Assembly: GCF_988243305.1 (NCBI RefSeq)
Contig: NZ_OZ547138.1
Strand: one strand, 5' to 3'
DNA length: 64,000 nucleotides
Origin: a plasmid
Under the pieces are notes generated by a model. It was not told the DNA's origin. It did not search any database and saw only the letters and a list, made by a program, of their open reading frames with translations. Within the stretch, counting starts at the first letter, position 1. The number at the start of each line of letters is the position of its first letter. Shown piece by piece: positions 33,535 to 50,500 of the stretch. The translations under genes and the position numbers were made by a program.

Positions 33535-33695
33535 GGCCGTGCCGGCACGTTAACCGGGCTGCATCCGATGCAAGTGTGTCGCTGTCGCCGGCCTCCTCAC
33601 CCGGTCACGTTTCGTCGTTCCTCCTCCACGCGCTGCGGCTTCGGGGCCGCACCTGCATTCGTATGCGGTCGCCCGGTTACAGGTGCGGCACGGCC
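33535..33695. promoter_or_regulatory. Long imperfect hairpin element upstream of first leading-region gene
   Basis: 33535-33544 (ggccgtgccg) pairs with 33686-33695, with further imperfect pairing inward. The 3' tail ...catgtgagaggagaattcccATG resembles the tails of the family-A elements. Confidence 0.5.
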
Positions 33696-33727
33696 TGATG
33701 GAGGCCGCATGTGAGAGGAGAATTCCC

Positions 33728-34654
33728 ATGCCAAACTGGTGCTCGAATCGTATGTATTTTTCTGGTGAACCGGCACAGATCGCTGAGATTAAACGACTGG
33801 CCAGCGGCGCAGTCACACCGTTTTATCGCCGCGCCACAAATGAAGGTATTCAGCTGTTTCTGGCCGGAAGTGCCGGACTTCTGCAGACCACTGAAGATGT
33901 GCAGTTTGAACCGTGCCCCGGACTGACGGCTGCCGGACGTGGTGTTGTATCGCCGGAGAATATCGCGTTCACACGCTGGCTGACACACCTGCAGAACGGT
34001 GTGCTACTGGATGAACAAAACTGCCTGATGCTGCATGAACTCTGGCTGCAGAGCGGTACTGGACAGCGTCGCTGGGAAGGATTACCGGACGATGTCAGGG
34101 ATACCATCACCGCACTTTTCACCGCAAAAAGAGGTGACTGGTGTGGCTTCTGGAGTAACGAGGATGTATCGGTGTGGTGGAACCGTCTGTGTGACAACGT
34201 ACTGCCGGAAAAAACCATGCCGTTTGACCTGCTGACGGTTTTGCCGACCCGCCTGGATATTGAAGTGAATGGCTTTAACGGCGGTGTTCTGAACGGTGTT
34301 CCTTCTGCATATCACTGGTATACAGAACGGTATGGCGTGAAGTGGCCTTGTGGGTATGACCTGAATATCAGCAGTCAGGGGGAAAACTTCATTCAGGTAG
34401 ATTTCGACACGCCGTGGTGTCAGCCGGAAAGCGACGTTGTTGCAGAATTAAGCCGCCGTTTCAGCTGCACAATGGAGCACTGGTATGCCGAACAGGGCTG
34501 CAATTTCTGTGGCTGGCAGCGATATGAGCGTGGCGAGCTTGTTGATGTGCTGTGGGGGGAGCTGGAATGGTCTTCCCCGACAGATGACGATGAGCTGCCG
34601 GAAGTCACCGGACCTGCGTGGATAGTCGACAATGTGGCGCATTATGGCGGATGA
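33728..34654 (+). CDS. Leading-region protein (MPNWCSNRMYFSG… family; I recall it as DUF1281-like)
   Basis: 308 aa from the ATG at 33728, which follows a GAGAGGAG SD. A conserved MPNWC start is seen in plasmid leading regions. Function is unknown. Confidence 0.7.
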   Translation: MPNWCSNRMYFSGEPAQIAEIKRLASGAVTPFYRRATNEGIQLFLAGSAGLLQTTEDVQFEPCPGLTAAGRGVVSPENIAFTRWLTHLQNGVLLDEQNCLMLHELWLQSGTGQRRWEGLPDDVRDTITALFTAKRGDWCGFWSNEDVSVWWNRLCDNVLPEKTMPFDLLTVLPTRLDIEVNGFNGGVLNGVPSAYHWYTERYGVKWPCGYDLNISSQGENFIQVDFDTPWCQPESDVVAELSRRFSCTMEHWYAEQGCNFCGWQRYERGELVDVLWGELEWSSPTDDDELPEVTGPAWIVDNVAHYGG

Positions 34655-34756
34655 AGTATGACGGAGACGGGCGGGCAACCGCCCGTTTCTTTTCCGGTAA
34701 AGGATGTCGCCGGGCTCCTCTTTTTACTGCGCCGGCTGACGCGGCGCGGCAGGAAC

Positions 34757-34978
34757 GCTGCCTGTGGTCAGTGTCCCGCGTCCGGTGGGCACGGGACGGG
34801 CGCTTTTACCGCTCCCGGCTGGCACCGGTGACAGTGTACGCCAGCCCGTCGCCCTTTTCTGATGAACGCCCTTCAAGCCGCTTTCGCGGCATAGCCTTGC
34901 CGTCAGAAAGACGACGGCTGCGGTATTCCACGGTCGGCCTGACCCGTTACCGGACGCGGTGAACAGCCCACAGGCAGC
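34757..34978. promoter_or_regulatory. Long imperfect hairpin element upstream of the methyltransferase gene
   Basis: Nested perfect pairings: 34757-34767 with 34968-34978, and 34776-34786 with 34949-34959. It lies in a 384-bp GC-rich non-coding gap, and the left border motif aaggatgtcgcc (about 34700) is shared with family A. Confidence 0.5.
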
Positions 34979-35038
34979 GGGGAACGGGCACCACAGGGGT
35001 GCCCTCCCGGTGTCCTCTGTAAGAGAAGGAGCGTTGTT

Positions 35039-35722
35039 ATGTCCCGTTTTGTCCTCGGTAACTGCATCGATGTTATGGCCCGTATTCCTGATAACGCCAT
35101 TGATTTCATACTGACTGACCCGCCGTACCTCGTCGGTTTTCGTGACCGTTTCGGGCGCACCATCGCTGGCGATAAAACCGATGAATGGCTGCAACCGGCC
35201 TGTAATGAAATGTACCGCGTACTCAAAAAAGACGCGCTGATGGTGAGCTTCTACGGCTGGAACCGCGTCGATCGCTTTATGGCCGCCTGGAAAAATGCGG
35301 GATTCAGCGTTGTTGGTCACCTGGTCTTCACCAAAAACTACACATCGAAGGCCGCATATGTGGGCTATCGCCACGAATGCGCCTACATCCTGGCAAAAGG
35401 CCGTCCACGTCTGCCACAAAACCCGCTGCCGGACGTGCTGGGCTGGAAATATTCGGGCAATCGTCATCACCCGACGGAAAAGCCCGTTACCAGCCTGCAA
35501 CCGCTGATTGAGAGCTTCACACACCCGAACGCAATTGTGCTGGACCCGTTTGCAGGCAGCGGCTCAACCTGCGTCGCTGCCCTCCAGTCCGGACGCCGGT
35601 ATATCGGTATCGAGCTGCTTGAGCAGTATCACCGTGCCGGGCAGCAACGCCTTGCCGCCGTGCAACGGGCCATGCAGCAGGGGGCCGCGAATGATGACTG
35701 GTTTATGCCGGAGGCTGCGTAA
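35039..35722 (+). CDS. Orphan DNA N6-adenine/N4-cytosine methyltransferase (leading region)
   Basis: 227 aa with a DPPY motif (ILTDPPYLVG) and a C-terminal SAM-binding motif (VLDPFAGSGSTCVAA), the beta-class order. No restriction partner is nearby. Confidence 0.88.
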   Translation: MSRFVLGNCIDVMARIPDNAIDFILTDPPYLVGFRDRFGRTIAGDKTDEWLQPACNEMYRVLKKDALMVSFYGWNRVDRFMAAWKNAGFSVVGHLVFTKNYTSKAAYVGYRHECAYILAKGRPRLPQNPLPDVLGWKYSGNRHHPTEKPVTSLQPLIESFTHPNAIVLDPFAGSGSTCVAALQSGRRYIGIELLEQYHRAGQQRLAAVQRAMQQGAANDDWFMPEAA

Positions 35723-35944
35723 ATGAACTATGCCGGACACGAAAAACTGCGCGCCGACGTGGCGGAGGTGGCCAATGCCATGTGCGACCTGCGTACAACC
35801 ATGAATGAGATGGAGCAGCGGTACAGCTTTAATGCCGACACCCTGCCGGAACGTCTGGTGCGTCAGACGCTGTTTCGCGCAAACCGCCTCCTGATGGAGG
35901 CATATACCGAAATTCTTGAACTGGATGCGTGCTTCAAAGATTAA
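35723..35944 (+). CDS. Hypothetical 73-aa protein
   Basis: The ATG abuts the methyltransferase stop. Predicted helical. Unknown function. Confidence 0.55.
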   Translation: MNYAGHEKLRADVAEVANAMCDLRTTMNEMEQRYSFNADTLPERLVRQTLFRANRLLMEAYTEILELDACFKD

Positions 35945-35956
35945 GGAGGAGACGAA

Positions 35957-36391
35957 ATGTACGGAACATGCGAAACGCTCTGCCGTGAGCTGGCAGCAAA
36001 GTATCCGGGAAACACGCCGCTGATGCTGCTTATCTGGTCCCCGGAAGAGATTCAGGCCCTCGCTGACGGAATGGATATTTCTCTGTCCGATCATGAAATC
36101 AGAACCGTCCTGGCGCGCCTGGAGGACATCCCGGAAGACCAGCGGACTGAATCCGGTATTTCTTCCGGTGCGGCGATGGAGATTATCAATAACGTGAGAG
36201 AAAACCGCCAGGTGACCGTCCCTGCTGAACTGCTGGCGTCCCTGATTCAGACCGCCGAACAGGCACTGTGGAAACGTGAGTGGGCCGCCCGTGATAACGG
36301 CCTCGCCGTCCCGGAATGCGTCACCCGCCGACAGGCGGTGGTTAATCAGGCCCGCGCCCTGCTGAAAAACAACACACGCGAAAACGACTGA
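35957..36391 (+). CDS. Hypothetical 144-aa leading-region protein (paralog of 38092-38514)
   Basis: Preceded by an AAGGAGGAG SD. It shares an ...R(Q/H)VTVPAxxL... core and overall layout with the 140-aa ORF at 38092. Confidence 0.65.
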   Translation: MYGTCETLCRELAAKYPGNTPLMLLIWSPEEIQALADGMDISLSDHEIRTVLARLEDIPEDQRTESGISSGAAMEIINNVRENRQVTVPAELLASLIQTAEQALWKREWAARDNGLAVPECVTRRQAVVNQARALLKNNTREND

Positions 36392-36435
36392 TGTTATCGC
36401 CGCCTGCGGGCGGCGATTCAGGGAGACCATGAATC

Positions 36436-37206
36436 ATGAACGAAACGCTGAATGCACTGATTTATCGCCACGCCAGCAACCTGCTGCTGGCGCAGGGCTG
36501 GCCGGAAGAGACGGATGTTGACCAGCGTAATCCGAAGTATCCGGGCTGGATCAGCATTTACGTGCGGCTGGATGTGCCCCGGCTGGCGACGTTACTTATC
36601 AACCGTCACGGCGGCGTACTGCCGCCGCTCCTGGCCTCCGCCATTCAGAAACTGACCGGAACCGGGGCGGAACTGGTACTGTCCGGCAGTCAGTGGCAGT
36701 CGCTGCCGGTACTTCCGGCAGACGGAACACAGGTGTTTTTCCCGTATGCCGGAGAATGGCTGACCGAAGACGAAATCAGGGCAGTTCTTGATGCAGTGCG
36801 CAATGCAGTACGAAGCATCTGTTACCAAGTGGCAGAAGATGCCCGGCGTATCCGGGCGGCGCTGACCACCACCGGTCAGACGTTGCTGACCCGCCAGACG
36901 CGCCGCTTTCGTCTGGTTGTGAAGGAAAGCGATTACCCCTGCTGGCTTGATGAAGATGACGAAAATCTGCCCGTGGTGCTCGATGCCATTCTGAACCGTG
37001 GCGCTCGTTTTTCGTCGGTGGAAATGTATCTGGTCAGTGAGTGTGTGGAGCATATCCTGTCCAGTGGGCTGGCCTGCGATGTGCTGCGTATACCTGATGA
37101 ACCGTCCCGTCGCTGGTTTGACCGGGATATTCTGCGGGAGGTGGTCCTGGAAGCCCGGACTGAAATCCGCAGCATGGCGGATGCACTGGCGAAAATCCGG
37201 AAATGA
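36436..37206 (+). CDS. Hypothetical 256-aa leading-region protein
   Basis: Co-directional ORF with good coding appearance. No recognisable motifs. Confidence 0.65.
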
Positions 37207-37266
37207 TGACGCTGGCGGGGAAAATCTCCGCCTTTTCCAGCCGGTCCCCGGAAAGAGCAAAAGGAT

Positions 37267-37619
37267 GTCGCCGCAGGCTCCGCTTTACCCGGCCATGCGG
37301 GGCATGGCCTTGTGGGTTTTCAGTTATGTGGCCTCAGCGTCGTGTGCGGGCTGTGCCGTGCCTCCATCGTAGCCGGGCTTCTGCGGGCGGGTTGCAAGGT
37401 AAGGTGAACCGCTGCGGTCACCCGGTCCCTCCTTCCCGTCTGCCGTGATTTTCCGGTCGTTCACCCGCTCAGATTTCGCGGTCTCACCCTCCAACTCCCG
37501 TCAGCCGTGCGCGTCAGGCTGCGGCTTCCCTTGCGCCCTTGCAACCCTGCAGGTCCGGCAAAGATGGAGGCACGGCACCGCCCGGTGTCGCGGAATATGT
37601 GAACAACGGAGGAAATCCC
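37267..37619. repeat. Family-A hairpin element, copy 1 (ssi/Frpo-like candidate ssDNA promoter)
   Basis: About 353 bp, near-identical to 44215-44568. 37353-37368 pairs perfectly with 37563-37578 (21 bp with 1 mismatch over 37348-37368/37563-37583). It ends at the ATG of the klcA/ardB-like gene. Confidence 0.7.
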
Positions 37620-38045
37620 ATGCAGTATGCGAAACCTGTCACTCTGAACGTTGAAGAGTGCGACCGTCTGTCTTTTCTGCCTTACCTGTTTGGCCTGGAT
37701 TTTCTGTATGCCGAAGCGTCTGTATACGCGCTGGCGAAAAAAATGATGCCGGAATATGAAGGCGGATTCTGGCACTTCATCCGCCTGCCGGACGGTGGCG
37801 GTTACATGATGCCGGATGGCGACCGTTTTCATCTGGTCAACGGTGAAAACTGGTTTGACCGTACCGTGAGTGCTGATGCCGCAGGCATCATTTTGACTTC
37901 CCTTGTGATTAACCGCCAGTTGTGGCTGTACCACGACAGCGGGGATGCAGGGTTGACACACCTGTACAGGATGCGCGATGCGCAGTTGTGGAGCCACATC
38001 GAATTTCACCCCGAATGCAACGCGATTTACGCGGCACTTGACTGA
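37620..38045 (+). CDS. KlcA/ArdB-family antirestriction protein
   Basis: 141 aa: ...RLSFLPYLFGLDFLYAEASVYALAKKMMPEYEGGFWHFIRLPDGGGYMMP... This matches the KlcA/ArdB pattern. The track start at 37539 lies inside the repeat. Confidence 0.75.
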   Translation: MQYAKPVTLNVEECDRLSFLPYLFGLDFLYAEASVYALAKKMMPEYEGGFWHFIRLPDGGGYMMPDGDRFHLVNGENWFDRTVSADAAGIILTSLVINRQLWLYHDSGDAGLTHLYRMRDAQLWSHIEFHPECNAIYAALD

Positions 38046-38091
38046 TTAACGGACGGGGCGGCAATGCCGCCCCTGTAAAGGAGACGAGAAC

Positions 38092-38514
38092 ATGTACTGT
38101 ACTGTTAAAGAAATCATCCGCGATGTACTGGATACAGACGTGCCGGACAGTGAATGCGTTTTTGCCGTGGTGCTGACCCGTGGGGATGTGCGTCACATAG
38201 CCCAGGACTGGAACCTGTCAGACGATGAGCTGGAAACCGTCATGCAGCGACTGGACGATGCCTTTGAGCATGGTGCGGATGTCAGCGTTGTTCACGACGT
38301 TGTTCGTGAACTGATGGAAGAAAAGCGCGCCAGCCGTCATGTGACAGTCCCGGCGGTGATGCTGGAAAAAGTGATGGCGCTGGCAGGCAGTGAAATGAAG
38401 CGCCTGTATGCCGTCGGGAGTGAGAACGGGGGCGACGGTGACGCATTCGTCAGGGAGGAACGCGAAGCAATGGACGTTGTGTTACAGGCGCTGGACGGGG
38501 AGACGATGTCATGA
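38092..38514 (+). CDS. Hypothetical 140-aa leading-region protein (paralog of 35957-36391)
   Basis: Preceded by an AAGGAGACGAG SD. Acidic, with the shared RHVTVPAVML core. Confidence 0.65.
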   Translation: MYCTVKEIIRDVLDTDVPDSECVFAVVLTRGDVRHIAQDWNLSDDELETVMQRLDDAFEHGADVSVVHDVVRELMEEKRASRHVTVPAVMLEKVMALAGSEMKRLYAVGSENGGDGDAFVREEREAMDVVLQALDGETMS

Positions 38515-38702
38515 ATATCAGCACAGAAACCCGCGAAATTCTGCGTAATTACAGGGCCGTGATTAATGCGCGGCGTCGTGAAATGGGGCAGAAACCGCTC
38601 ACCACCGCGCAGATTGTTGATGAAATCTGCGATTTTGTGGCGAATCAGCAGGCGGTTTTCCTGGGCGGTCACTACATCCTTCAGGGCAGCAGAAACAGGT
38701 GA
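38511..38702 (+). CDS. Hypothetical 63-aa protein
   Basis: Start overlaps the upstream stop (ATGA). Short and unrecognised. Confidence 0.45.
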   Translation: MNISTETREILRNYRAVINARRREMGQKPLTTAQIVDEICDFVANQQAVFLGGHYILQGSRNR

Positions 38703-38905
38703 TACAGGGGCAGGCGGTGGAGGCCGCCTGTCAGCCCGCGCGAAAACCCCAGGCAGGCTGACGCCTGCCGGAAACGCGGGGTGCAGCGCCTGCGGCGCTG
38801 CCGGCCCGGCTTTCCGGTCAGAAGGTAGTGTATGGCTGTATGCAGGGAACAGGAGTGATATTCCGTGACACTGTCACCGTTTCTGGCTGTCTTTTATTGC
38901 GCCCA

Positions 38906-39471
38906 CTTCGGCTCCCGGCTGCCTGGCGGCATCCGGTCGTCAGGCCCGACTCCGACGGGCAGCTGCTGGCGCACCCGCCAGTCTCCGCCGAACCCGCTGG
39001 CGCGGTTTCGGGCTGCCGCTACGGTCCGATGCGTGAAAACCCGGCTTGCAGCGACCGTTCCGGTCGCGCCGCCCCTGTCGCGCCGTGACCTGCGCTCCCT
39101 GCACACCTGACGGTGTGTGAGGAAACTGCGCCTGATGGCGCAGCAGTCCTCCCTCCTGCCGCCACTCCTGCGGCCTGTTTCCCGCTGTGGACTTTCCGGG
39201 GGGCAGACGTAACCCCCTCCCGTTCCATCTGTCCAGGGTGAGATGCACCGGCCACAAAATTTTTAGCCATGAACCCGGCAAAAAATTTTGCGTCCGCCCC
39301 CGGACAGCTGCCCCGTGAGGCGGTAAACGGGCCCCCATCGGAAAGGTCCACTGCGGGGAGAAAACCCTGTGAAGTGGACGGCAGGAGGAGCTTTCGCTCC
39401 TCTGAAGGGGCACATGAACGTCCCGTCGCCGGTATCCGGTTTATCTCACATCTTTCAGTCAGGAGGTTCTT
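38906..39471. repeat. Family-B hairpin element, copy 1 (upstream of ssb)
   Basis: About 566 bp with high similarity to 45251-45800, and its 3' two-thirds to 48281-48653. 39152-39161 pairs with 39379-39388, and 39181-39199 pairs imperfectly with 39339-39358. It ends at the ssb ATG. Confidence 0.7.
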
Positions 39472-39999
39472 ATGAGTGCACGTGGTATCAACAAGGTCAT
39501 CCTCGTCGGGCGTCTGGGCAATGATCCGGAGGTCCGTTACATCCCCAACGGGGGCGCAGTGGCAAACCTGCAGGTGGCCACGTCAGAAAGCTGGCGCGAC
39601 AAACAGACGGGGGAGATGCGGGAGCAGACGGAATGGCACCGCGTGGTGCTGTTCGGCAAGCTCGCGGAAGTGGCAGGTGAATATCTGCGCAAGGGCGCGC
39701 AGGTCTACATCGAGGGGCAACTCCGTACCCGTAGCTGGGAAGATAACGGTATCACCCGTTACGTCACTGAAATTCTTGTTAAGACCACGGGCACCATGCA
39801 GATGCTGGGGAGTGCACCACAGCAGAACGCTCAGGCGCAACCGAAGCCTCAGCAGTACGGCCAGCCACAGAGTGCTGACGCAACGAAAAAAGGGAGCGCG
39901 AAAACGAAAGGCCGTGGACGTAAGGCTGCGCAGCCGGAGCCTCAGCCGCAACCGCCGGAGGGTGAGGATTACTGGTTTTCAGACGATATCCCGTTCTGA
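39472..39999 (+). CDS. ssb: Plasmid single-stranded DNA-binding protein
   Basis: 175 aa. Starts [48 protein letters not shown] and has an acidic tail DDIPF. Confidence 0.95.
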
Positions 40000-40055
40000 A
40001 TGACTGACTGTGAAAACCGCCCCGTCCAGTGCGGGGCATCACCGGAGATATGAGG

Positions 40056-40289
40056 ATGAGCGAATATTTCAGAATATTTCAGGGGCTGCCTGACGGCTCC
40101 TTTACCCGCGAACAGGCTGAAGCCGTTGCCGCACAGTACCGGAATGTCTTTATCGAGGATGATCAGGGAACGCATTTTCGCCTGGTTGTCCGCAATAACA
40201 GTGGCCTGGTCTGGCGTACCTGGAATTTTGAGGACGGTGCCGGGTACTGGATGAACCATGTCATCCGGAATTTCGGCATTCTTAAGTAA
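40056..40289 (+). CDS. Small leading-region protein (YubL-like)
   Basis: 77 aa from [16 protein letters not shown], with a GGAG SD 8 nt upstream. It occupies the position between ssb and the ParB-like gene, as in F. Confidence 0.6.
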
Positions 40290-40347
40290 GAGAGGTGCCG
40301 GACGCGCGAACGTCCGGCAGGACATAAGCAATTATAAGGGGATGATT

Positions 40348-42306
40348 ATGCCTGTAACGAAGTGTGAACCAGAAACCACCCGCAAAGCAAGCCGTAAATC
40401 TGTAAAAACGCAGGAAACTGTCCTGTCTGCCCTGCTGGCGCAGACGGAGGAAGTGAGCGTGCCGCTGGCCTCGCTGATTAAATCACCGCTGAATGTGCGC
40501 ACGGTGCCGTATTCTGCGGAGTCCGTCAGCGAACTGGCGGAGTCCATTAAGGGCGTTGGCCTGTTGCAGAATCTGGTCGTGCATACCCTGCCTGGTGACC
40601 GTTACGGTGTCGCCGCAGGTGGTCGCCGACTGGCTGCACTCAACATGCTGGCAGAGCGTGGCATTATTCCGGCTGACTGGCCTGTACGCGTGAAGGTTAT
40701 TCCGCAGGAGCTGGCGACTGCCGCATCAATGACTGAAAACGGTCATCGTCGGGATATGCACCCTGCCGAACAGATTGCCGGATTCCGTGCGATGGCGCAG
40801 GAAGGCAAAACGCCTGCACAAATCGGTGATTTGCTGGGCTATTCGCCCCGCCACGTTCAGCGAATGCTGAAACTGGCAGACCTTGCGCCTGTCATCCTCG
40901 ATGCGCTGGCAGAAGACCGCATCACCACAGAGCACTGTCAGGCGCTGGCGCTGGAGAACGACACCGCGCGTCAGGTGCAGGTGTTTGAAGCCGCCTGCCA
41001 GTCGGGATGGGGCGGTAAACCGGAAGTACAGACCATTCGTCGTCTGGTGACCGAAAGTGAAGTGGCGGTGGCGGGGAACAGTAAATTCCGCTTTGTGGGG
41101 GCTGATGCCTTCTCGCCAGATGAACTGCGCACTGATTTGTTCAGCGACGACGAGGGTGGCTATGTGGACTGTGTTGCGCTCGATGCCGCCCTGCTGGAAA
41201 AACTCCAGGCTGTTGCAGAGTTCCTTCGGGAAGCCGAAGGCTGGGGATGGTGCGCCGGACGCATGGAGCCTGTCGGTGAGTGCCGTGAGGATGCCGGAAC
41301 ATACCGCTGTCTGCCGGAGCCGGAAGCGGTGCTGACGGAGGCGGAAGAAGAACGCCTGAACGAACTGATGACGCGTTACGACGCGCTGGAAAACCAGTGT
41401 GAGGAATCCGACCTGCTGGAAGCAGAAATGAAGCTGATTGACTGCATGGCGAAGGTCAGGGCGTGGACGCCGGAGATGCGTGCCGGAAGTGGCGTGGTGG
41501 TGTCCTGGCGTTATGGAAACGTATGTGTCCAGCGTGGTGTGCAGTTGCGCAGTGAAGATGACGCGACTGATGACGCTGACCGCACGGAACAGGTGCAGGA
41601 GAAAGCGTCAGTGGAGGAAATCAGTCTGCCGTTGCTGACGAAAATGTCTTCCGAACGCACGCTGGCAGTCCAGGCAGCACTGATGCAGCAACCGGACAAA
41701 TCCCTGACACTGCTGGCATGGACGCTCTGCCTGAATGTGTTTGACAGCGGAGCGTACAGTAAACCAGCACAAATCAGCCTGGAATGTAAACATTATTCGC
41801 TGACCAGCGATGCGCCGTCAGGGAAGGAAGGTGCCGCATTCCTGGCGCTGATGGCAGAAAAAGCCCGTCTTGCGGCCCTGTTACCGGAGGGATGGTCACG
41901 GGACATGACGACGTTCCTGTCACTCAGTCAGGAGGTGCTGTTATCCCTGCTCAGTTTCTGCACCGCATGCAGCCTTAACGGTGTCCAGACCCGCGAGTGT
42001 GGTCGCACGTCACGCAGTCCGCTTGACTCACTGGAGAGCGCCATCGGTTTTCACATGCGCGACTGGTGGCAGCCGACGAAAGCAAACTTCTTCGGACACC
42101 TGAAAAAGCCGCAGATTATCGCAGCCCTGAATGATGCCGGACTGTCCGGTGCCGCACGGGACGCAGAGAAGATGAAGAAAGGCGATGCCGCTGAACATGC
42201 AGAGTTCCATATGAAAGACAACCGCTGGGTGCCTGGCTGGATGTGTTCACCACGTCCACAGACGGATGCCACTGAACGCGCCGATAACCTGGCTGATGCC
42301 GCCTGA
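40348..42306 (+). CDS. ParB/Srx-nuclease-domain leading-region protein (652 aa)
   Basis: ParB N-terminal motifs are visible: SPLNVRTVPY and VVHTLPGDRYGVAAGGRRLAAL. The start was chosen at MPVTK after an AAGGGG SD. The length matches the F leading-region ParB-like ORF from memory. Confidence 0.8.
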   Translation: MPVTKCEPETTRKASRKSVKTQETVLSALLAQTEEVSVPLASLIKSPLNVRTVPYSAESVSELAESIKGVGLLQNLVVHTLPGDRYGVAAGGRRLAALNMLAERGIIPADWPVRVKVIPQELATAASMTENGHRRDMHPAEQIAGFRAMAQEGKTPAQIGDLLGYSPRHVQRMLKLADLAPVILDALAEDRITTEHCQALALENDTARQVQVFEAACQSGWGGKPEVQTIRRLVTESEVAVAGNSKFRFVGADAFSPDELRTDLFSDDEGGYVDCVALDAALLEKLQAVAEFLREAEGWGWCAGRMEPVGECREDAGTYRCLPEPEAVLTEAEEERLNELMTRYDALENQCEESDLLEAEMKLIDCMAKVRAWTPEMRAGSGVVVSWRYGNVCVQRGVQLRSEDDATDDADRTEQVQEKASVEEISLPLLTKMSSERTLAVQAALMQQPDKSLTLLAWTLCLNVFDSGAYSKPAQISLECKHYSLTSDAPSGKEGAAFLALMAEKARLAALLPEGWSRDMTTFLSLSQEVLLSLLSFCTACSLNGVQTRECGRTSRSPLDSLESAIGFHMRDWWQPTKANFFGHLKKPQIIAALNDAGLSGAARDAEKMKKGDAAEHAEFHMKDNRWVPGWMCSPRPQTDATERADNLADAA

Positions 42307-42357
42307 TGAACAACCACACCGCCCCGCCGGAGACGGGGCGGCAGAGGGAGAAATACG

Positions 42358-42795: not shown

Positions 42796-43511
42796 GCGCA
42801 CGTTCACGGGCACTGATCCCCCTCAGCGCAGAACAACAGGCCGCCATGCAGGCGGTGGCTGTCACAGAACAACGTCGTCGTCAGGGACGCACACTTTCAG
42901 CATGGCCTTATGCCACCGCTTTCTTTCGCTGCCTGAATGGCAGTCGCCGGATTTCGCTGACCGATCTCCGCTTTTTTGCCCCTGCGCTGACGAAGGAGGA
43001 ATTTCATGGCAACCGTCTCCTGTGGCTGGCTGCCGTGGATAAACTGATTGAAAGTTTTGGGGAAGTCTGTGTTCTTCCCCTGCCATCCGATGCGGGGCAC
43101 CGTCTGTTCCCGTCCGTGCCTTTTCGTGAAGGTGAGCGTCGTCGTCAGAAAACCACGCTGACAGAGCAGAAATACAGCCGCCAGCGGGAACGTGAGGCAG
43201 AACGACGGGAACTGGAATACCAGACATGTTTTGCTCAGGCGCAGATTGACCTTGCGTTTCATACTCCCGCCACGGTCGGAAGCTGGTTGTCCCGCTGGTC
43301 TGGTGTTGTTGAGGAGCATGATCTGGAAACGATTTTCTGGGGGTGGTGCGGGCGTTTTCCATCACTGTCATCATTTGACCGGTTTTTCTGGCAGGAGGAA
43401 CCACTCTGGCGGCTGATTTTTGAAGCCGGTGAGGCCGGTCGTGGTGCACCGGTACAGGTACGTGCACTTGAGCAGTGGATGATCCCGAACAAGCTGGAGA
43501 ACGTAATATGA
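42792..43511 (+). CDS. psiA: PsiA
   Basis: 239 aa, overlapping the psiB stop. Canonical psiB-psiA pair. Confidence 0.88.
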
Positions 43512-44104
43512 TGAAATCAGACGAAAAATACCAGGTTCCCGCGTGGATGCGACCTCTGTTGCCGTTGCTCTGCAACACCGGGGGGAACGATCCGGAAGAA
43601 CTGCTGAATGATACAGAAACCACTGCCAGTGCGAATGTTGTCCGTTATGTACTGATAGTTGCTGTGCGGTCGCAGGTTGATCTGCTGCAGCTTCTGTACA
43701 GGAAAGGGCTGTTGCGCACAGAGATACCAGGTGGCTTTTCACCGGAAGAAGCGCAGGCACTCCTGGATAATCTGGTGCGCAGCCATATCAGCAAGGCGCT
43801 GTCGGGCGAGCGAATGGCAGCCCGTGACAGAAATGCCGATCTGGCCTGGATTGGACAGCAACTGGTCGATGCCGCCTGGTTTGTCCGTGCCACACTGGAA
43901 GCGCATGGGATGAGCGTCGGAAATGAGAGTCCCCCTGCTCCGCCGGAGACAATGCCGGACATACAGACACGGGAACTGGTGATGTTGATCAAGCGACTGG
44001 CATCATCGCTGAAAGCGGTGAAACCGGACAGTTGTGTGGTGCGTGAAGCGCAGGACTGGCTGCGCGACAGAAAACTTGTGAGCATCACGGATGTTCTCCG
44101 GTGA
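43508..44104 (+). CDS. Hypothetical 198-aa leading-region protein
   Basis: The ATG overlaps the psiA stop (ATGA). Starts [26 protein letters not shown]. Unknown function. Confidence 0.6.
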   Translation: MMKSDEKYQVPAWMRPLLPLLCNTGGNDPEELLNDTETTASANVVRYVLIVAVRSQVDLLQLLYRKGLLRTEIPGGFSPEEAQALLDNLVRSHISKALSGERMAARDRNADLAWIGQQLVDAAWFVRATLEAHGMSVGNESPPAPPETMPDIQTRELVMLIKRLASSLKAVKPDSCVVREAQDWLRDRKLVSITDVLR

Positions 44105-44214
44105 ACCAGTGGAGGTATGCTTGAGGGGCAGGGACATGCCAGTCATGATCGTTTCATATCAGGGGTGGTCTGGAGGTCATGCGGTGTGCTCCCTGCTCTC
44201 GCCGGAATAAGGAA

Positions 44215-44568
44215 GTCGCCGGCGGCTCCGCTTTTACCCGGCCATGCGGGGCATGGCCTTGTGGGTTTTCAGTTATGTGGCCGCCGTGTCGTGTGCGGGC
44301 TGTGCCGTGCCTCCATCGTAGCCGGGCTTCTGCGGGCGGGATGCAAGGTAAGATGAACCGCTGCGGTCACCCGGTCCCTCCTTCCCGTCTGCCGTGATTT
44401 TCCGGTCGTTCACCCGCTCAGATTTCGCGGTCTCACCCTCCAACTCCCGTCAGCCGTGCGCGTCGGGCTGCGGCTTTCCTTGCGCCCTTGCATCCCTGCA
44501 GGCCCGGCAAAGATGGAGGCACGGCACCGCCCGGTGTCGCAGAACATGTGACTATGGAGGATTCGGGA
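44215..44568. repeat. Family-A hairpin element, copy 2 (upstream of ardA)
   Basis: Near-identical to 37267-37619. 44302-44317 pairs perfectly with 44512-44527. It ends at the ardA ATG. Confidence 0.7.
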
Positions 44569-45069
44569 ATGTCTGTTGTTGCACCTGCTGTATACGTTGG
44601 AACCTGGCACAAATACAACTGTGGAAGCATCGCCGGACGCTGGTTTGACCTGACCACGTTTGATGATGAGCGCGACTTTTTCGCCGCCTGCCGTGCTCTT
44701 CACCAGGATGAAGCCGATCCTGAACTGATGTTTCAGGATTATGAGGGATTCCCGGGGAATATGGCCTCTGAATGTCATATCAACTGGGCCTGGGTTGAAG
44801 GCTTCCGCCGGGCACGGGATGAAGGCTGCGAAGAGGCTTATCGTCTCTGGGTGGATGATACCGGTGAGACGGATTTTGACAGCTTCCGCGATGCCTGGTG
44901 GGGCGAGGCTGACAGTGAGGAGGCTTTTGCGGTTGAGTTCGCCAGTGATACCGGCCTGCTGGCTGACGTGCCGGAGACGGTGGCGCTCTATTTTGACTAT
45001 GAGGCGTATGCGCGGGATTTATTCCTGGACTCCTTCACCTTTATTGACGGTCATGTGTTCCGTCGGTGA
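44569..45069 (+). CDS. ardA: Antirestriction protein ArdA (type I R-M inhibitor, DNA mimic)
   Basis: 166 aa starting MSVVAPAVYVGTWHKYNCGSIAGRWFDLTTFDDERDFFAAC. Highly acidic, with a GGAGG SD. The track start at 44488 lies in the repeat. Confidence 0.92.
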   Translation: MSVVAPAVYVGTWHKYNCGSIAGRWFDLTTFDDERDFFAACRALHQDEADPELMFQDYEGFPGNMASECHINWAWVEGFRRARDEGCEEAYRLWVDDTGETDFDSFRDAWWGEADSEEAFAVEFASDTGLLADVPETVALYFDYEAYARDLFLDSFTFIDGHVFRR

Positions 45070-45250
45070 TTTACTCCCCCGCTCCGGCGGGGGTATGGCC
45101 TGCCAGGCCGCCGGAAAACCCTGGCAGGCTTACGCCTGCCTGAAATGCAGGAGGGCCGCGCCTGCGGCGCTGCCCTTCCTGCCCGTCATGGTGTGAGGCA
45201 TTTTTCTGTTATGTCGTTTCTGTTGTTCTGATTTCCGGAGGCGGGGACAC

Positions 45251-45800
45251 CTTCGGCTCCCGGCTGCCTGGCGGCATCCGGTCGTCAGGCCCGACTCCGA
45301 CAGGCAGCTGCTGGCGCACCCGCCAGTCTCCGCCGAACCCGCTGGCGCGGTTTCGGGCTGCCGCTACGGTCCGATGTCTGAAAAACCAGGCTTGCAGCGA
45401 CCGTTCCGGTCGCGCCGCCTCTGTCGCGCCGTGACCTGCGCTCCCTGCACACCTGACGGTGTGTAAGGAAACTGCGCCTGATGGCGCAGTTGTCTGCCCT
45501 TCCGCCGCCACCCCTGCGGCCTGTTTCCCGCTGTGGACTTTCCGGGGGCTGAAGCGGCCACAACACGTGTCAGCCGTCCAGGGGGGAGATGTACCAGCCA
45601 CAAAACTTTTTGCCGCAAGCGTCAAAAACTTTTGCGTCTGCCCCCGGACAACTGCCCCGTGCCGTGGCTGTCGCTGCCCCATCGGAAAGGTCCACTGCGG
45701 GGAGAAACCCCGAAGAAGTGGACGGCAGAAGGGGCTTTCGCCCCTCCGGGGGAGCAACCGGTCGGCCCGGCGACCTGATTCAGCAGAAGGAGACGTTTTC
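45251..45800. repeat. Family-B hairpin element, copy 2
   Basis: Aligns by eye along its whole length with 38906-39471. It ends at the ATG of the unknown 144-aa ORF. Confidence 0.7.
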
Positions 45801-46235
45801 ATGACAGTCAGCAGCACGATTTCCGTTTTTTGCCGCGACGGGGTGTTCCGTACCGTTTACTGCCACCTGCACGGTGAGCCGACCTGGAACGGTCGCATCC
45901 TGCATACCCACTATGCCACCGGTCAGCAGGCCGAAGCCCTGGTTGAACACGGTGATATCCGTTGCCTCGGTCCCCGTTGCGACAAACCCGCCGGGCATAC
46001 GCTTCAGAACCCGGTGGACGGTGTGACGGCTTATTACGGACGTGACAGTGGTTTCCGGATGGACAGTGAGGCGCGTGAGTACCGTTCTTTCAGGGAGGCC
46101 ATCGCCACGGAAAGCACTGAAGAGGTGCGCTTCCATTATGTGTTCATCGACGGCTACTGGAAGGTGATGTACCGCACGCCGGAAGGCTGGAAGATGAAGT
46201 CGCTTGCGCTGGCACTGCGCCGCTGTCCGAAATGA
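45801..46235 (+). CDS. Hypothetical 144-aa protein directly behind a family-B element
   Basis: ATG at 45801 after an AAGGAGA SD. Starts MTVSSTISVFCRDGVFRTVYCHLHGEPTWNGRIL. The track start at 45459 lies inside the repeat and is rejected. Confidence 0.65.
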   Translation: MTVSSTISVFCRDGVFRTVYCHLHGEPTWNGRILHTHYATGQQAEALVEHGDIRCLGPRCDKPAGHTLQNPVDGVTAYYGRDSGFRMDSEAREYRSFREAIATESTEEVRFHYVFIDGYWKVMYRTPEGWKMKSLALALRRCPK

Positions 46236-46328
46236 AAAAAAGGCAGGGCGATAAACCCTGCCTCTCTCCGCCGGCGCTTCCCCGCCAGGAAGCCCGGCAT
46301 CTCAATCACTATCTATGGAGATTATGCC

Positions 46329-46595
46329 ATGAGACCATCAATTATCTTCGCAACCGCCGAGTATGTAAAGCGTCTGCGTGAAGAGTGCCTGCGGGAGAAT
46401 AAACCCCTGCACCGCCATACCCGCTTCAGACGTCAGGAGCTGGCACAGGATGAGATTAACCCGGACGTCCTGGCGATGAGCGGTCATATCGCCAGACGCT
46501 GCAGTGAGCAGAAGCGGGTGCGTATCCCCGCTATGAAAGCCAGCGAATGGGGCCACCTGCTCCGCGCGCTTGAAATTGAACGGGTCTGCCACTGA
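46329..46595 (+). CDS. Hypothetical 88-aa basic protein
   Basis: Preceded by a GGAG SD. Arg-rich. Unknown function. Confidence 0.5.
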   Translation: MRPSIIFATAEYVKRLREECLRENKPLHRHTRFRRQELAQDEINPDVLAMSGHIARRCSEQKRVRIPAMKASEWGHLLRALEIERVCH

Positions 46596-46659
46596 TTAAC
46601 CCTTGCCGTCTGCCTGTGCAGGCGGCAGGATACGTTCAGACATCTCACCAGGAGGAACC

Positions 46660-47562
46660 GTGAGTAAGAAGAAAAACACCACAACGCCCACGCCGCATGA
46701 TGCCGCGTTCCGGTCGTTCCTGGCGAATCCCGACGTCGCCAGAGATTTTCTGGAACTGCATCTTCCGGCGGAGTACCGGCAGTTGTGCGACCTGTCCACG
46801 CTGAAGCTGGAACCCGCCACCTTTGTAGAGCCGGACCTGCATCAGTACGCCAGCGATATCCTCTGGAGCGTGAAAACCACCGGGGGTGAAGACGGCTATG
46901 TTTATACGCTCATCGAGCACCAGAGCACCGAAAATCTGTACATGCCTTTTCGCATGTTACGTTACAGTGTGGCGGCGATGCAGAGACATCTGGAGCAGCA
47001 CAAAACGTTGCCACTGGTGATTCCGGTGCTGTTCTATCACGGTGAGCGCAGCCCGTACCCGTACAGCATGAACTGGCTGGACTGTTTTGAGAATCCGGCA
47101 CTTGCGGCTAAAATATACACAAAGCCGTTTCCGCTGGTTGATATCACTGTCGTTGATGACAATGAAATCATGAATCATCGCCGGATGGCCGCACTGACGC
47201 TGCTGATGAAGCATATCCGCCATCGTGACATGATGGAGCTGCTGGACAAACTCCCGAAGGTCATGGTGGAAATTTCAGACGAGCAGGTGCGTGTTCTGAT
47301 TCATTACATCGTTAACGCAGGGGACTCTGTATCACCGGAATTTATGCGGGCGCTGGCTGAGCGTCTGCCGCAGCATGAGGATAAACTGATGACTATCGCA
47401 GAACGTCTTGAGCAAAAAGGTCGCCAGGAGGGCAGGATGGAAGGTGCGCTTGAAAAAGCCCTGGCTATTGCGTGCCAGCTTCAGAAAATGGGGATGACGC
47501 CGGAGCAGATTAAGCAGGCTACCGGGCTTTCCGATGACGAACTGAAGAAAATCACTCACTGA
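46660..47562 (+). CDS. Rpn-family (YhgA-like, PD-(D/E)XK) recombination-promoting nuclease
   Basis: 300 aa from a GTG after a GGAGGA SD. Contains HDAAFRSFL…, DILWSVK…, YVYTLIEHQS and PLVIPVLFYHG motifs typical of Rpn/transposase_31 proteins. It also has the characteristic C-terminal MTIAERLEQKGRQEG… tail. Confidence 0.8.
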   Translation: MSKKKNTTTPTPHDAAFRSFLANPDVARDFLELHLPAEYRQLCDLSTLKLEPATFVEPDLHQYASDILWSVKTTGGEDGYVYTLIEHQSTENLYMPFRMLRYSVAAMQRHLEQHKTLPLVIPVLFYHGERSPYPYSMNWLDCFENPALAAKIYTKPFPLVDITVVDDNEIMNHRRMAALTLLMKHIRHRDMMELLDKLPKVMVEISDEQVRVLIHYIVNAGDSVSPEFMRALAERLPQHEDKLMTIAERLEQKGRQEGRMEGALEKALAIACQLQKMGMTPEQIKQATGLSDDELKKITH

Positions 47563-47574
47563 TGAGAGTATCAC

Positions 47575-47599
47575 AGCCCGGCAAAATGCCGGGCTTTTT
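47575..47599 (+). terminator. Rho-independent terminator after rpn
   Basis: agcccggca-aaa-tgccgggct followed by TTTT. Confidence 0.7.
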
Positions 47600-47624
47600 A
47601 TCCAGCAGGAGCAGAGCAAACAGT

Positions 47625-47795
47625 ATGACGCTTGCAGAACGTCTTATACAGAAAGGTTTTGAAAAAGGCGCTCTTGAAGTGGCGCGGGAAATAGCCTGTC
47701 GGCTTCGGGATATGGGCTGGCCGCCGAAACGGATTCAGGAGGCTACCGGACTTTCCGGTGAAGAACTGAAAAAACTGTTTCCTGATGAGCAGTAG
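47625..47795 (+). CDS. Free-standing 56-aa paralog of the Rpn C-terminal tail
   Basis: MTLAERLIQKGFEKGALEVAREIACRLRDMGWPPKRIQEATGLSGEELKKLF aligns with the Rpn tail MTIAERLEQKGRQEG..EKALAIACQLQKMGMTPEQIKQATGLSDDELKKI. AGGAG lies 13 nt upstream. Confidence 0.5.
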   Translation: MTLAERLIQKGFEKGALEVAREIACRLRDMGWPPKRIQEATGLSGEELKKLFPDEQ

Positions 47796-47825
47796 CCTGG
47801 CATTCAGCCAGGCTGTGAATCACGC

Positions 47826-48077
47826 TCACACATCCTCTGCCGTTTCCCCCAGTTCATTTTCCAGACGCCTGATGATATCTGCCTTACGCATCCCCTGCAT
47901 GTGAGGCAGCAGGTCACGGACTGAAAGAGCCTGGGTGGTCCTCCAGACGGTGACGTCCACCTGTTCCGCATTTTCCCAGGCGTGCCATGTTCTCTGCGTC
48001 ACGCCAAATTCTCTGGCCGCTTTTTCGCGTGACCAGAGCATGCTTTTTCGCCAGATTCGCAGTTCCCAGTCGGTCAT
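47826..48077 (-). CDS. Small HTH DNA-binding protein (XRE-like)
   Basis: 83 aa. REKAAREFGVTQRTWHAWEN is a helix-turn-helix. Twin palindromic operators lie upstream. Confidence 0.7.
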   Translation of the reverse strand: MTDWELRIWRKSMLWSREKAAREFGVTQRTWHAWENAEQVDVTVWRTTQALSVRDLLPHMQGMRKADIIRRLENELGETAEDV

Positions 48078-48092
48078 AAAATACCTTTGAAA

Positions 48093-48178
48093 AAGTGAAA
48101 AAACTTCACTTTATTTTATCACCATAATCACCAAATCAGCGCGAAAAATAAGTGTGAAAAAGTGAAGAAATTTCACTT
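48093..48178. promoter_or_regulatory. Two 19-bp palindromes AAGTGAA-N5-TTCACTT (putative operators of the HTH gene)
   Basis: Copies at 48093-48111 and 48160-48178, 67 bp centre-to-centre. They bracket an AT-rich promoter-like stretch immediately upstream of the 47826-48077 gene. Confidence 0.65.
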
Positions 48179-48280
48179 TTTTTAATTGCAGATGTCGTGC
48201 TGTTTTCTCTGTTTTCACCTGTGCGGGAGTGGTGTGCCAGTGACCACCACATGCCATTGTTGTGCCGTCGTTTTTCTTCA

Positions 48281-48653
48281 GTCGCGCCGGATGCGGCGCT
48301 CCCTGCACACCTGACGGTGTGTAAGGCCACTGCGCCTGATGGCGCAGCTGTCTCTGCCTGTCTGCCGCCGCACTGCGGCCTGTTCTCCGCAGACGGACTT
48401 TCCGGGGGAACATACACGACCACATCCCGTTTCAGTTATCCAGGGGAGAGATGTACCAGCCACAAAACTTTTTGCCGCAGGCGTCAAAAACTTTTGCGTC
48501 TGCCCCCGGACAACTGCCCCGTGACGTGGTGAGCATCCCCCGTCGGAAAGGTCCACTGCGGGGAAATCCCCGAAGACCCGGACGGCAGAAGGAGCTTCGC
48601 TCCTCCGGGAAATGACCTGGCTGACCCGGCAGTCGTGACGATGAGGAGACAAT
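48281..48653. repeat. Family-B hairpin element, copy 3 (lacks the first ~170 bp)
   Basis: Aligns with the 3' two-thirds of copies 1 and 2 from gtcgcgccg…ccctgcacacctgacggtgtgt onward. It ends at the start of the 283-aa ORF. Confidence 0.65.
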
Positions 48654-49505
48654 GTGATGAATCAGACTTTACCCACTGCTGACCTGAATACTGCCGGCAC
48701 GACAGATATTATTCCGTCTGTGGCCATCGACCGCATTATCGCGCAGCGTAACGAAGGTATTGCACTGTTCATGCAGGCGATGGAATGCCTGGCGACAGCA
48801 CGCAGGATTCTGCTCGATGCTTCTGGTGACATTTTTCTCTACGGGTTTGAAGACTGCGTGACTGACTCTGTTCGATGCATGGATAAACCGGAAGAAGCAA
48901 AAAAGAATATCACCCGTCTTGCCGACCGTAAAATCTGGGACCGCCTGATGGCGGATACGGGGATGTACACCTTCATGAGTTCATGCCAGCGTGATGAGTG
49001 GAACAGCCAGCTGATGAGCGACACCTGTCCTGAAATCACCCTGGACAATGTGCTGGCAACTTTTCGCCATCTGAATGCCAGCAAGATGCAGACATTTGAA
49101 CAGAGACTGATTGATGTCTACCGGAAATTGTCATGGGATTACAGAACCAATAATCCCTGCCGTCTGGGCAAGAAAATCATTATTGAAAACCTGCTGTACC
49201 GCTGGAGTAACGGGCGTGTGACGCTGGACTGCAGCGGACGGGAGGCACTGGATGACCTGGTACGTCCGTTTTATCTGCTGGAGGGACGCAACGTTCCTGA
49301 CTTCAGGAACAGCATCGGGGCGCAGTATGGTGAATATCTCGGGAACGGCGATAATGTCGGTAAGCTGTTAGAAGGGGAATATTTTACGGTGCGTGGCTAC
49401 CAGAAAGGGACCGTACACATTGTCTTTAAGCGTCCTGACCTTGTTGAAAAACTGAATGATATTATTGCACGGCATTATCCTGGTGCATTGCCGCCACGAG
49501 TCTGA
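48654..49505 (+). CDS. Hypothetical 283-aa leading-region protein
   Basis: GTG at 48654 or ATG at 48657, after a GAGGAG SD. No motif I can name with confidence. Confidence 0.65.
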   Translation: MMNQTLPTADLNTAGTTDIIPSVAIDRIIAQRNEGIALFMQAMECLATARRILLDASGDIFLYGFEDCVTDSVRCMDKPEEAKKNITRLADRKIWDRLMADTGMYTFMSSCQRDEWNSQLMSDTCPEITLDNVLATFRHLNASKMQTFEQRLIDVYRKLSWDYRTNNPCRLGKKIIIENLLYRWSNGRVTLDCSGREALDDLVRPFYLLEGRNVPDFRNSIGAQYGEYLGNGDNVGKLLEGEYFTVRGYQKGTVHIVFKRPDLVEKLNDIIARHYPGALPPRV

Positions 49506-49516
49506 TTAAACAGAAA

Positions 49517-49547
49517 AGCCCTGGTATTTATGCCGGGGCTTTTTTTC
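49517..49547. terminator. Hairpin plus T-run between convergent genes
   Basis: agccctgg-tatttatg-ccggggct (1 mismatch) followed by TTTTTTT. Confidence 0.55.
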
Positions 49548-49589
49548 TGTAATCATCATAATCTCAGAACACGATGTGACATTGTCACA

Positions 49590-49931
49590 TCAATTGTTGT
49601 TCATATCGATGCCATCTTTCCTGCCTGAATCTGTCTTTTTAGGTGCTGTTTTAGAGGAAGAACGGCGGGATGGTTTTTTCGATTCTGCTTCCCGAATAAT
49701 GTCGCGAAGTGCTTTCTCTCCTACTTCATACCCTGCATTTTTGAGCGTGTCACGAACATCTGCCAGTGTATAACCCTTTGTCCTTACCAGGACAATGATG
49801 TCATCACGAATGGCATCAAGAAAATCACGCAATGTTTTCCGTTGAGCGGTGAGGTCCGGCAATTCCGATAAGGCAGCTTTTGCCAGCTGGATGTCATCAT
49901 CTGAGTAAAATTTTTTAGAAGCCATTGGCAC
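49590..49931 (-). CDS. Hypothetical 113-aa protein adjacent to oriT
   Basis: Divergent from nikA. Helical N-terminal half and a basic Ser/Lys-rich tail. Possibly an oriT-region DNA-binding accessory protein; unverified. Confidence 0.55.
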   Translation of the reverse strand: MPMASKKFYSDDDIQLAKAALSELPDLTAQRKTLRDFLDAIRDDIIVLVRTKGYTLADVRDTLKNAGYEVGEKALRDIIREAESKKPSRRSSSKTAPKKTDSGRKDGIDMNNN

Positions 49932-50048
49932 TTTCTCTCTGTTTTATGTTGAAGCCTGATTTTATCACCAAAACTGCCTCCTGGCAGGGCTGCGCCCTGC
50001 CTCTGCCGTCTGCATAAGACTATGATGCACAAAAATAACAGGCTATAA

Positions 50049-50135
50049 TTGACCGAAAAACGGGACAGGATGTGGGAATGTCGGACCGCGCACGCGCACT
50101 CAGACATTCCCCACCTGGTCAGGGCTTTGCCCCGA
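50049..50135 (-). other. oriT: oriT (IncI1/R64-type) with predicted nick site
   Basis: The minus strand reads GGGGTGTCGGGGCAAAGCCCTGACC…GGGAATGTCTGAGTGCGCGTGCGCGGTCCGACATTCCCACATCCTG/TCCCG. There are inverted repeats at 50074-50082 and 50103-50111. The RP4/R64-like ATCCTG/T nick motif places nic between 50066 and 50065. Confidence 0.7.
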
Positions 50136-50156
50136 CACCCCGGTAAGGAGCAGACC

Positions 50157-50489: not shown

Positions 50490-50500
50490 GATAACTGCTG

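Follow-up and report, generated by a model that had tools for sequence, protein, structure and literature searches.

Promoters acting in single-stranded plasmid DNA are classically represented by Frpo of F (Frpo1/Frpo2; Masai and Arai, 1997; Couturier et al., 2023) and by ssi1-3 of ColIb-P9 (Bates et al., 1999; Nasim et al., 2004). In F, early expression is lost upon deletion of Frpo (PMC9849209). For the IncI1 plasmid pESBL, Wen et al. (NAR 2025, PMC12672017) report RNA sequencing of transconjugants with six strongly induced leading-region operons, an induction of up to about 500-fold, a large hairpin before each induced operon and the determination of all six start sites by 5' rapid amplification of cDNA ends (5'-RACE). 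Three classes are distinguished there: class 1 comprises ssi1-3 and Frpo, class 2 resides before klcA and ardA and class 3 before the gene for the M.EcoGIX methylase. Fraikin et al. term the same classes ssp1, ssp2 and ssp3. Here, we analyze a plasmid-derived window of 64,000 nucleotides (nt) on contig NZ_OZ547138.1 (assembly GCF_988243305.1), which carries seven intergenic elements, numbered E1 to E7 by rising coordinate; E2 to E7 very probably constitute single-stranded DNA promoters of an IncI1-type leading region and act on the incoming minus strand. Orthologues in pESBL, ColIb-P9 and F have been shown to be transcribed early in the recipient and from the single strand only; shut-off upon conversion to duplex DNA and roles as primer and roadblock have likewise been described for orthologous elements. 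The hairpin-plus-gene units of E2 to E7 are already known and have been mapped experimentally in the near-identical pESBL; only E1, the seventh and weakest hairpin, has not yet been described as a single-stranded DNA promoter and is a plausible additional member. The original prediction, made from the sequence without database searches, had described these units as a repeated modular architecture, a reading anticipated by what is published for pESBL (PMC12672017).

The part of the window between 33.3 and 50.1 kb is the leading, i.e. first-transferred, region of an IncI1-type (I-complex, MOBP, MPF_I) conjugative resistance plasmid. Positions 33000-50500 are 100% identical to E. coli plasmid p1-S1-KEN-03-A, which is typed as carrying an I-complex (IncI-gamma/K1) replicon, a MOBP relaxase and an MPF_I mating apparatus; pESBL is typed alike, and related DNA is present in more than 5000 enterobacterial plasmids. 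The leading region of pESBL-EA11 is syntenic with that of the window at 96% identity, and the order from impCAB to nikAB is common to both. The predicted nic of the origin of transfer (oriT) lies on the minus strand at 50066/50065. The sequence of this strand at nic is CCCACATCCTG|TCCCG, adjoined by an inverted repeat of 9 nt (GGGAATGTC...GACATTCCC), and the motif CATCCTG|T fits YATCCTG|Y, the nick-region consensus of the MOBP/R64-RP4 group. A nick motif adjoining an inverted repeat, with the relaxase genes, here nikA (50157-50489) and nikB (50501-53212), on the lagging side of nic, characterizes a MOBP oriT. A nick at this position means that the minus strand would enter 5' end first from 50065 toward lower coordinates and that the leading region would therefore arrive single-stranded, templating the plus-strand genes. 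The original prediction had placed nic and the direction of transfer in just this way, and the motif read there agrees with it. The predicted strand bias is likewise reproduced: the plus strand carries 22 of 24 coding sequences that are annotated or supported by Pfam, or 20 of 22 once two probably spurious open reading frames over hairpins are set aside. In pESBL with an inverted oriT, the methylase gene is on the wrong strand (PMC7736820).

All seven GC-rich intergenic stretches listed in the original prediction were found at the positions given for them, and its five quoted pairs of repeat arms are 100% complementary (16/16, 10/10, 11/11, 11/11 and 10/10). A repeat finder returned longer arms of 27-32 nt overall at 33533-33559/33671-33697 (E1), 34756-34786/34949-34979 (E2), 37347-37376/37555-37584 (E3) and 44296-44327/44502-44533 (E5). 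Two families of repeats are evident within the region, one consisting of 37284-37583 and 44233-44532, which are 97% identical, and the other of 38906-39471, 45251-45800 and 48278-48653; no copy of any element occurs in the 64-kb window outside 33-50 kb. All elements were folded as DNA on the minus, i.e. transferred, strand, and z-scores were calculated against dinucleotide shuffles of these minus-strand folds. Each element yields a hairpin of 165-315 nt, the base of which ends 5-59 nt before a start codon on the plus strand (starts at 33752, 35039, 37620, 39472, 44569, 45801 and 48657), within the 0-60 nt originally proposed. Folding on the minus strand, put forward as a check of the original prediction, gave clear results for E2 to E7 (z from -4.3 to about -8) and the poorest one for E1 (z -2.75). 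Except for E1, all elements fold more stably on the minus than on the plus strand, by 4-16 kcal/mol. When the published hairpin mining was repeated on the window (300-nt windows, 10-nt step, below -75 kcal/mol), exactly E2 to E7 were returned and nothing else. The orthologues of these six elements in pESBL are 88-99% identical and precede the same genes, namely those for the methylase, KlcA, Ssb, ArdA, a block of hypothetical and Rpn proteins and a DUF4942 protein. The sequence families that had been noticed correspond, by homology to pESBL and ColIb-P9, to classes 1, 2 and 3.

E7, E6 and E4 are identified by homology as ssi1, ssi2 and ssi3, because the ColIb-P9 ssi sequences, taken from Supplementary file 4 of Samuel et al., match them on the minus strand with 98.2, 87.3 and 98.5% identity, respectively. 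E7 (48279-48651, minus strand; ssi1/ColIb 'Frpo1' type) has its minimum free energy (MFE) hairpin at 48349-48651; the ColIb-P9 match covers AJ238399:1459-1787 and 48279-48607 of the window, identity to pESBL is 97%, and the element folds with -80.4 kcal/mol on the minus versus -64.8 kcal/mol on the plus strand (z down to -7.8 in 240-nt windows). E6 (45421-45794, minus strand; ssi2 type, MFE hairpin at 45492-45794) matches ColIb-P9 'Frpo2' over 45421-45748 and is 94% identical to its pESBL counterpart, with folds of -93.3 versus -79.7 kcal/mol (z down to -8.1 in 240-nt windows). E4 (39075-39466, minus strand; ssi3 type) matches ColIb-P9 'Frpo3' over 39075-39405, is 98.8% identical to pESBL and folds with -87.6 versus -75.0 kcal/mol (z -6 to -6.7 in 240-nt windows). 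Its long hairpin is based at 39152, pairing either with 39379-39388, as in the original prediction, or with 39460-39466 in the MFE structure. Class 1 elements overall thus reach z-scores of -6 to -8, with an advantage of 13-16 kcal/mol for the minus strand. Compared with F, their identity to ssiD amounts to about 77% and is confined to a central core of 78-115 nt. F also differs in having two class 1 copies versus three in IncI1, and resembles the window in carrying E1, ssp3, ssp2 and the class 1 core; a long hairpin of the transferred strand likewise precedes ssb and psiB there.

E3 (37347-37584, minus strand), upstream of a klcA/ardB-like gene, and E5 (44296-44533, minus strand), upstream of ardA, are assigned on sequence grounds to class 2 (ssp2). 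Both are 238-nt hairpins and 97% identical to each other. They share 87-89% identity with both pESBL copies (E3, 88%; E5, 89% with the element upstream of ardA) and 88.5-89% with F (E3, 88.5%), and the downstream genes are the same. The ssp2 copies in the window have thus diverged from pESBL by about 11-12%, and the spacer in the non-template arm is 5 nt longer. Folding energies are -73 kcal/mol (z -4.3) for E3 and -73.5 kcal/mol (z -4.9) for E5. Frpo'4, a candidate of ssp2 type described by Samuel et al. (2024), is about 79% identical to both elements (78.6% for E5). E2 (34756-34979, minus strand) precedes the gene for an M.EcoGIX-type methylase and is assigned to class 3 (ssp3) by its identity of 98.4% to pESBL and 96.4% to F; it folds with -83.5 kcal/mol (z -5.4). 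In a set of six diverged ssp3-type hairpins from four plasmids, 10 of the 74 pairs of the consensus structure are compensatory, most of them in the basal long-range stem.

How these hairpins would work can be outlined from their described relatives. NikB would nick the minus strand at 50066/50065, and the strand would enter the recipient 5' end first, with the leading region single-stranded and available as template for the plus-strand genes. On the entering strand, each intergenic element would then form a long, imperfectly paired hairpin. Its stem would imitate duplex promoter DNA, with hexamers resembling the -35 and -10 boxes, the latter within a mismatched stretch. The sigma-70 RNA polymerase of the host could thus transcribe the downstream operon ahead of complementary-strand synthesis, and conversion to duplex DNA would remove the hairpin and switch the promoter off. 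In E3 and E5, TTGCAA or TTGCAT is followed by TACGAT with two mismatched positions, and in E3 the non-template arm reads TTGCAA-N20-TACGAT with the mismatches inside the -10-like hexamer. The hexamer motif on the arm opposite the template is kept in eight members of the ssp2 family. At the -10-like site, the non-template arm of the window elements reads TACGAT versus AAAGAT on the duplex plus strand, and in both pESBL and F, TAAGAT on the arm contrasts with TTTTAT on the duplex strand. It is thus only upon folding of the single strand that the better -10-like hexamer arises, a pattern consistent with single-strand specificity. A consensus sigma-70 scan of the duplex plus strand revealed no canonical promoter 5' of any operon.

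Some points weigh against this reading. Computation on the present plasmid covers anatomy, homology, strand, orientation and covariation, and zygotic induction and start sites come from orthologues of 88-100% identity; we infer that the copies in the window would behave as these orthologues do, so that function is carried over from one plasmid to another. Moreover, a simple consensus scan of the non-template arms for hexamer pairs (at least 8 of 12 matches, spacer of 15-21) returned none for class 1, class 3 and E1, and the single pair TTGCAA-N20-TACGAT of E3 is a weak match. For the restored -35 and -10 hexamers that the original prediction had suggested looking for in the stems, these simple scans gave weak matches only. 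Its central proposal, hairpin promoters on the incoming strand that drive establishment and anti-defence genes, holds for E2 to E7 by way of published orthologues, and E1 is a candidate.

E1 (33533-33697, minus strand) is a hairpin of 165 nt upstream of a DUF1281/Api92-like gene, belongs to the ssp2 family and is a candidate single-stranded DNA promoter. Its arms are 81% complementary over 27 nt, and the element is 100% identical in pESBL and 96% identical in F. In duplex view it presents the arm architecture of ssp2, CTTGCAT-N15-TAnnnT with the hexamer in a mismatched stretch, followed by GGCACGGC. With nhmmer profiles built from eight ssp2-family arms, E1 itself left out, the non-template arm of E1 was recovered with E=2.4e-4 and the template arm with E=0.02, in correct order and orientation and as the sole extra matches in 64 kb. 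Direct orthologues of E1 are without power for an analysis of covariation, the upstream copies being at least 98.3% identical, and scans of genomes and metagenome contigs for DUF1281 loci returned relatives at 86-98% identity only; diversity was therefore drawn from two tblastn matches (44-46%) and from the supplement of Samuel et al. Two candidates from the latter, Frpo*1 and Frpo*3 (Samuel et al., 2024), align with E1 end to end over the full hairpin and have helices and conserved blocks in common with it. In the resulting alignment of three sequences, 91% of the cells are paired, and 21 of 60 pairs are changed on both sides versus 7.8±2.2 in shuffles (0 of 500 reach 21); controls in which the 3' partners were slid by one to three columns gave 0-4 such pairs. 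A TAnnGT segment forms an internal loop in all three. The candidates of Samuel et al. differ in that they stem from an island in an insect-gut metagenome, i.e. from another element with other downstream genes; E1 is absent from the sequences tabulated there, and the authors rated Frpo*1 and Frpo*3 with low certainty. Our conclusion from these comparisons is that E1 is a real member of the ssp2 family, a short and divergent relative of class 2 whose hairpin is under selection and occupies a promoter slot. As to its activity as a promoter in IncI1 and F plasmids, the chances appear close to even.

That E1 is inactive in this plasmid lineage, being a decayed ssp2-type relic, a structured 5' leader or a regulatory palindrome, with DUF1281 expressed weakly, late or from duplex DNA, has to be given only slightly less than an equal chance. 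Several findings speak for it and against a seventh promoter. With -56.4 kcal/mol and z -2.75, E1 is the weakest of the seven folds; its best 300-nt window (-69.4 kcal/mol) misses the limit of -75 kcal/mol, some coding stretches match its free energy, so that E1 is not distinct by energy alone, and there is no strand asymmetry between its minus and plus folds. The hairpin is deleted in two natural variants (contigs L084 and L086), and an ssp3 element takes its place in at least 366 plasmids. Furthermore, pESBL carries an identical E1, yet no promoter is listed for it there, and none of the six induced operons is assigned to DUF1281 in the text of PMC12672017. The last point has to be read with the mining threshold in mind: since E1 lies below the published filter of -75 kcal/mol in stability, it would not have been mined in pESBL. 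Inactivity also sits poorly with a structure kept by compensatory change across three diverged copies, with the retained family arm CTTGCAT-N15-TAnnnT...GGCACGGC and with the lack of a consensus duplex promoter upstream of DUF1281 on the plus strand. A further argument comes from IncF plasmids of Klebsiella (CP125752) and Citrobacter (NZ_OM982652), in which the layout is kept and the DUF1281 proteins are 44-46% identical to that of the window (tblastn). In both, an ssp3-type hairpin precedes DUF1281, and the occupation of the same slot by such a hairpin in distant plasmids implies that DUF1281 is normally driven by a promoter hairpin.

Exchange of the two hairpin types is also seen closer to the window. 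E1 is replaced by ssp3 in ten contigs (nine metagenome contigs and one Escherichia genome), with a junction that fuses 33711-33712 to 35016-35027 of the ssp3 leader; the natural recombinant loci include L039, L047, L049, L050, L052, L059, L072, L082 and L008. The junction is situated where both leaders resemble each other, at TGTRAGAGRAG before the ribosome-binding site, and the ssp3-DUF1281 junction is found in at least 366 plasmids of PLSDB versus at least 4236 with E1. In L049, one of the recombinant loci, DUF1281-ssp3 is also partly duplicated in tandem.

On the far side of E1, between it and the imp operon, a perfect DnaA box (TTATCCACA, 33483-33491, within the region 33462-33518) is followed after 17-19 nt by an inverted box-like partner. 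The box is invariant in the window plasmid, F and the Klebsiella and Citrobacter IncF plasmids, and the surrounding spacer is poorly conserved; in the 64 kb, two perfect DnaA boxes occur versus 0.32 expected. In the R6K 'A-site', the priming signal of the ABC primosome, a DnaA box is part of the stem of a hairpin formed by single-stranded DNA. The putative signal in the window resembles it in having a perfect, conserved DnaA box with a pairable inverted partner in transferred DNA, and differs from it in the shortness and low stability of its predicted stem (-16.9 kcal/mol, z -2.8). The box and its partner could pair on single-stranded DNA; the box could equally be an ordinary duplex DnaA operator.

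Combining these strands, we tentatively propose that E1, Frpo*1 and Frpo*3 form a short (165-186 nt) subclass of ssp2 in which E1 drives a seventh zygotic unit, DUF1281, that was missed owing to its sub-threshold energy; that the hairpins are cassettes, E1 and ssp3 being swapped at a fixed point some 40 nt upstream of the start codon; and that the DnaA-box repeat might be a DnaA-dependent priming signal from which the complementary strand would be synthesized back across the whole leading region. Taken jointly, these suggestions are possible rather than probable.

Another explanation shifts the weight from expression to replication: the hairpins might serve mainly complementary-strand synthesis, as sites for RNA priming or as programmed roadblocks that time conversion, with transcription being secondary. 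Frpo was first described as a promoter for primer RNA, the ssi elements owe their names to priming assays, and the conserved DnaA-box inverted repeat adjoins E1. Fraikin et al. found an early, rifampicin-sensitive conversion downstream of ssp1 and a stall where the ssp2 stem ends, which is resolved by UvrD; ssp2 of F accordingly also acts as a replication roadblock at which complementary-strand synthesis stalls until UvrD resolves it (bioRxiv 10.64898/2026.01.09.698686). As the dominant role, however, this is unlikely. All elements are oriented as expression requires and end 5-59 nt ahead of a start codon, induction in pESBL reaches about 500-fold, and ssp3 put in place of ssp2 partly restores the phenotype via expression (Fraikin et al.). 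Moreover, priming or roadblock and expression roles are compatible and have been shown in the same papers; the former is real for some classes and complementary to expression. It is highly improbable that the elements act at the RNA or duplex level, as terminators or insulators, mRNA leaders or repeats resembling repetitive extragenic palindromes, with the hairpin on the transferred strand being incidental: inverted repeats do fold in plus-sense RNA too and short GC-rich terminator-like hairpins lie directly upstream of E4 and E6, but it is consistently the minus strand that folds more stably (for class 1 by up to 16 kcal/mol), the stems, 165-315 nt long and with promoter-like motifs inside, do not resemble terminators, a permissive Rfam scan of 30-53 kb matched no relevant family, and experiments show that the orientation with respect to oriT makes a difference (Samuel et al.; PMC7736820).

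As promoters of the leading region, the elements would set which plasmid genes run in the first minutes, i.e. those for anti-restriction, SOS inhibition, methylation of single-stranded DNA and host reprogramming, and this choice of early genes influences the establishment of resistance plasmids in a new host. The value of the present analysis is confirmatory in so far as an architecture established by RNA sequencing and 5'-RACE was recovered from raw sequence by a reader without tools. Beyond that, its value resides in the candidate unit of E1 and DUF1281, in the swapping of hairpins between genes as cassettes and in the conserved DnaA box at the distal edge.

Genes in the region were annotated according to the record identical to the window (p1-S1-KEN-03-A). 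The island is bounded distally by an impCAB-type operon on the minus strand (31380-33333; DinI-like, UmuD-like and Y-family polymerase UmuC), near which a LexA-box-like CTGT-N8-ACAG is read at 33358-33373; umu-like operons have been noted as island boundaries by Samuel et al. The genes listed here for the seven units lie on the plus strand. E1 is followed by the DUF1281/Api92-like gene (33752-34654). The E2 unit comprises the gene for the M.EcoGIX-type DNA methylase (35039-35722), followed by a hypothetical gene, a DUF1380 gene added by Pfam (35957-36391) and a hypothetical gene (36436-37206). In the E3 unit, the klcA/ardB-like antirestriction gene (37620-38045) precedes a DUF1380 gene and a hypothetical gene ending at 38702. 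The E4 unit contains ssb (39472-39999), a DUF905 gene and a gene for a ParB-like homologue of YfjB/HerB (40348-42306), followed by psiB, psiA and a hypothetical gene ending at 44104. E5 is followed by ardA (44569-45069), E6 by an operon of two hypothetical genes, an Rpn-family gene and one further hypothetical gene (45801-47795) and E7 by a DUF4942 gene (48657-49505). The position of the ParB-like gene, 3' of ssb, corresponds to that of yfjB in F. YfjB was renamed HerB in a 2026 preprint, which describes it as a zygotically induced reprogrammer of host transcription.

Two annotated hypothetical proteins were rejected as real coding sequences and are probably spurious. Their reading frames lie over the E2/ssp3 hairpin (34651-34962) and over the tail of E4/ssi3 (38840-39088); the products are rich in Arg and Pro, lack a Pfam match and bear no relation to the real small gene that diverged plasmids carry at the first position. 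The sole minus-strand genes of the leading region, a helix-turn-helix regulator gene and a small open reading frame, flank an AT-rich spacer (47826-48308 and 48078-48186). The spacer carries two copies of a palindromic AAAAAGTGAAnAAnTTCACTTT motif that look like operators. The pair makes up a conventional regulated unit set between ssi2 and ssi1.

Short GC-rich hairpins of the form CAGGCAGGC-N4-GCCTGCCTG occur at 38741-38780 and 45112-45151 (also 45075-45100). They are related to each other and reside about 40 nt past the last gene of the klcA block and past ardA, directly before class 1 repeats. They look like terminators lacking a T-run and may close each unit. Further long hairpins in the upstream tails of E4 and E6 or after ardA and the klcA block were considered and discarded, the folds there being short GC-rich terminator-like stems only. 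Within the hypothetical gene at 36436-37206, the coding stretch 36370-36779 folds on the minus strand with -73.7 kcal/mol per 300 nt (z about -4), near the values of the weakest promoter hairpins, and no repeat or homology accounts for it. Outside the leading region, a perfect 65-nt palindrome at 30170-30236 with four GATAACAA repeats per arm (DNA fold z -10.6) is located directly 3' of a small gene that follows a gene for a ParA-family ATPase, and is probably a partition (centromere-like) site.

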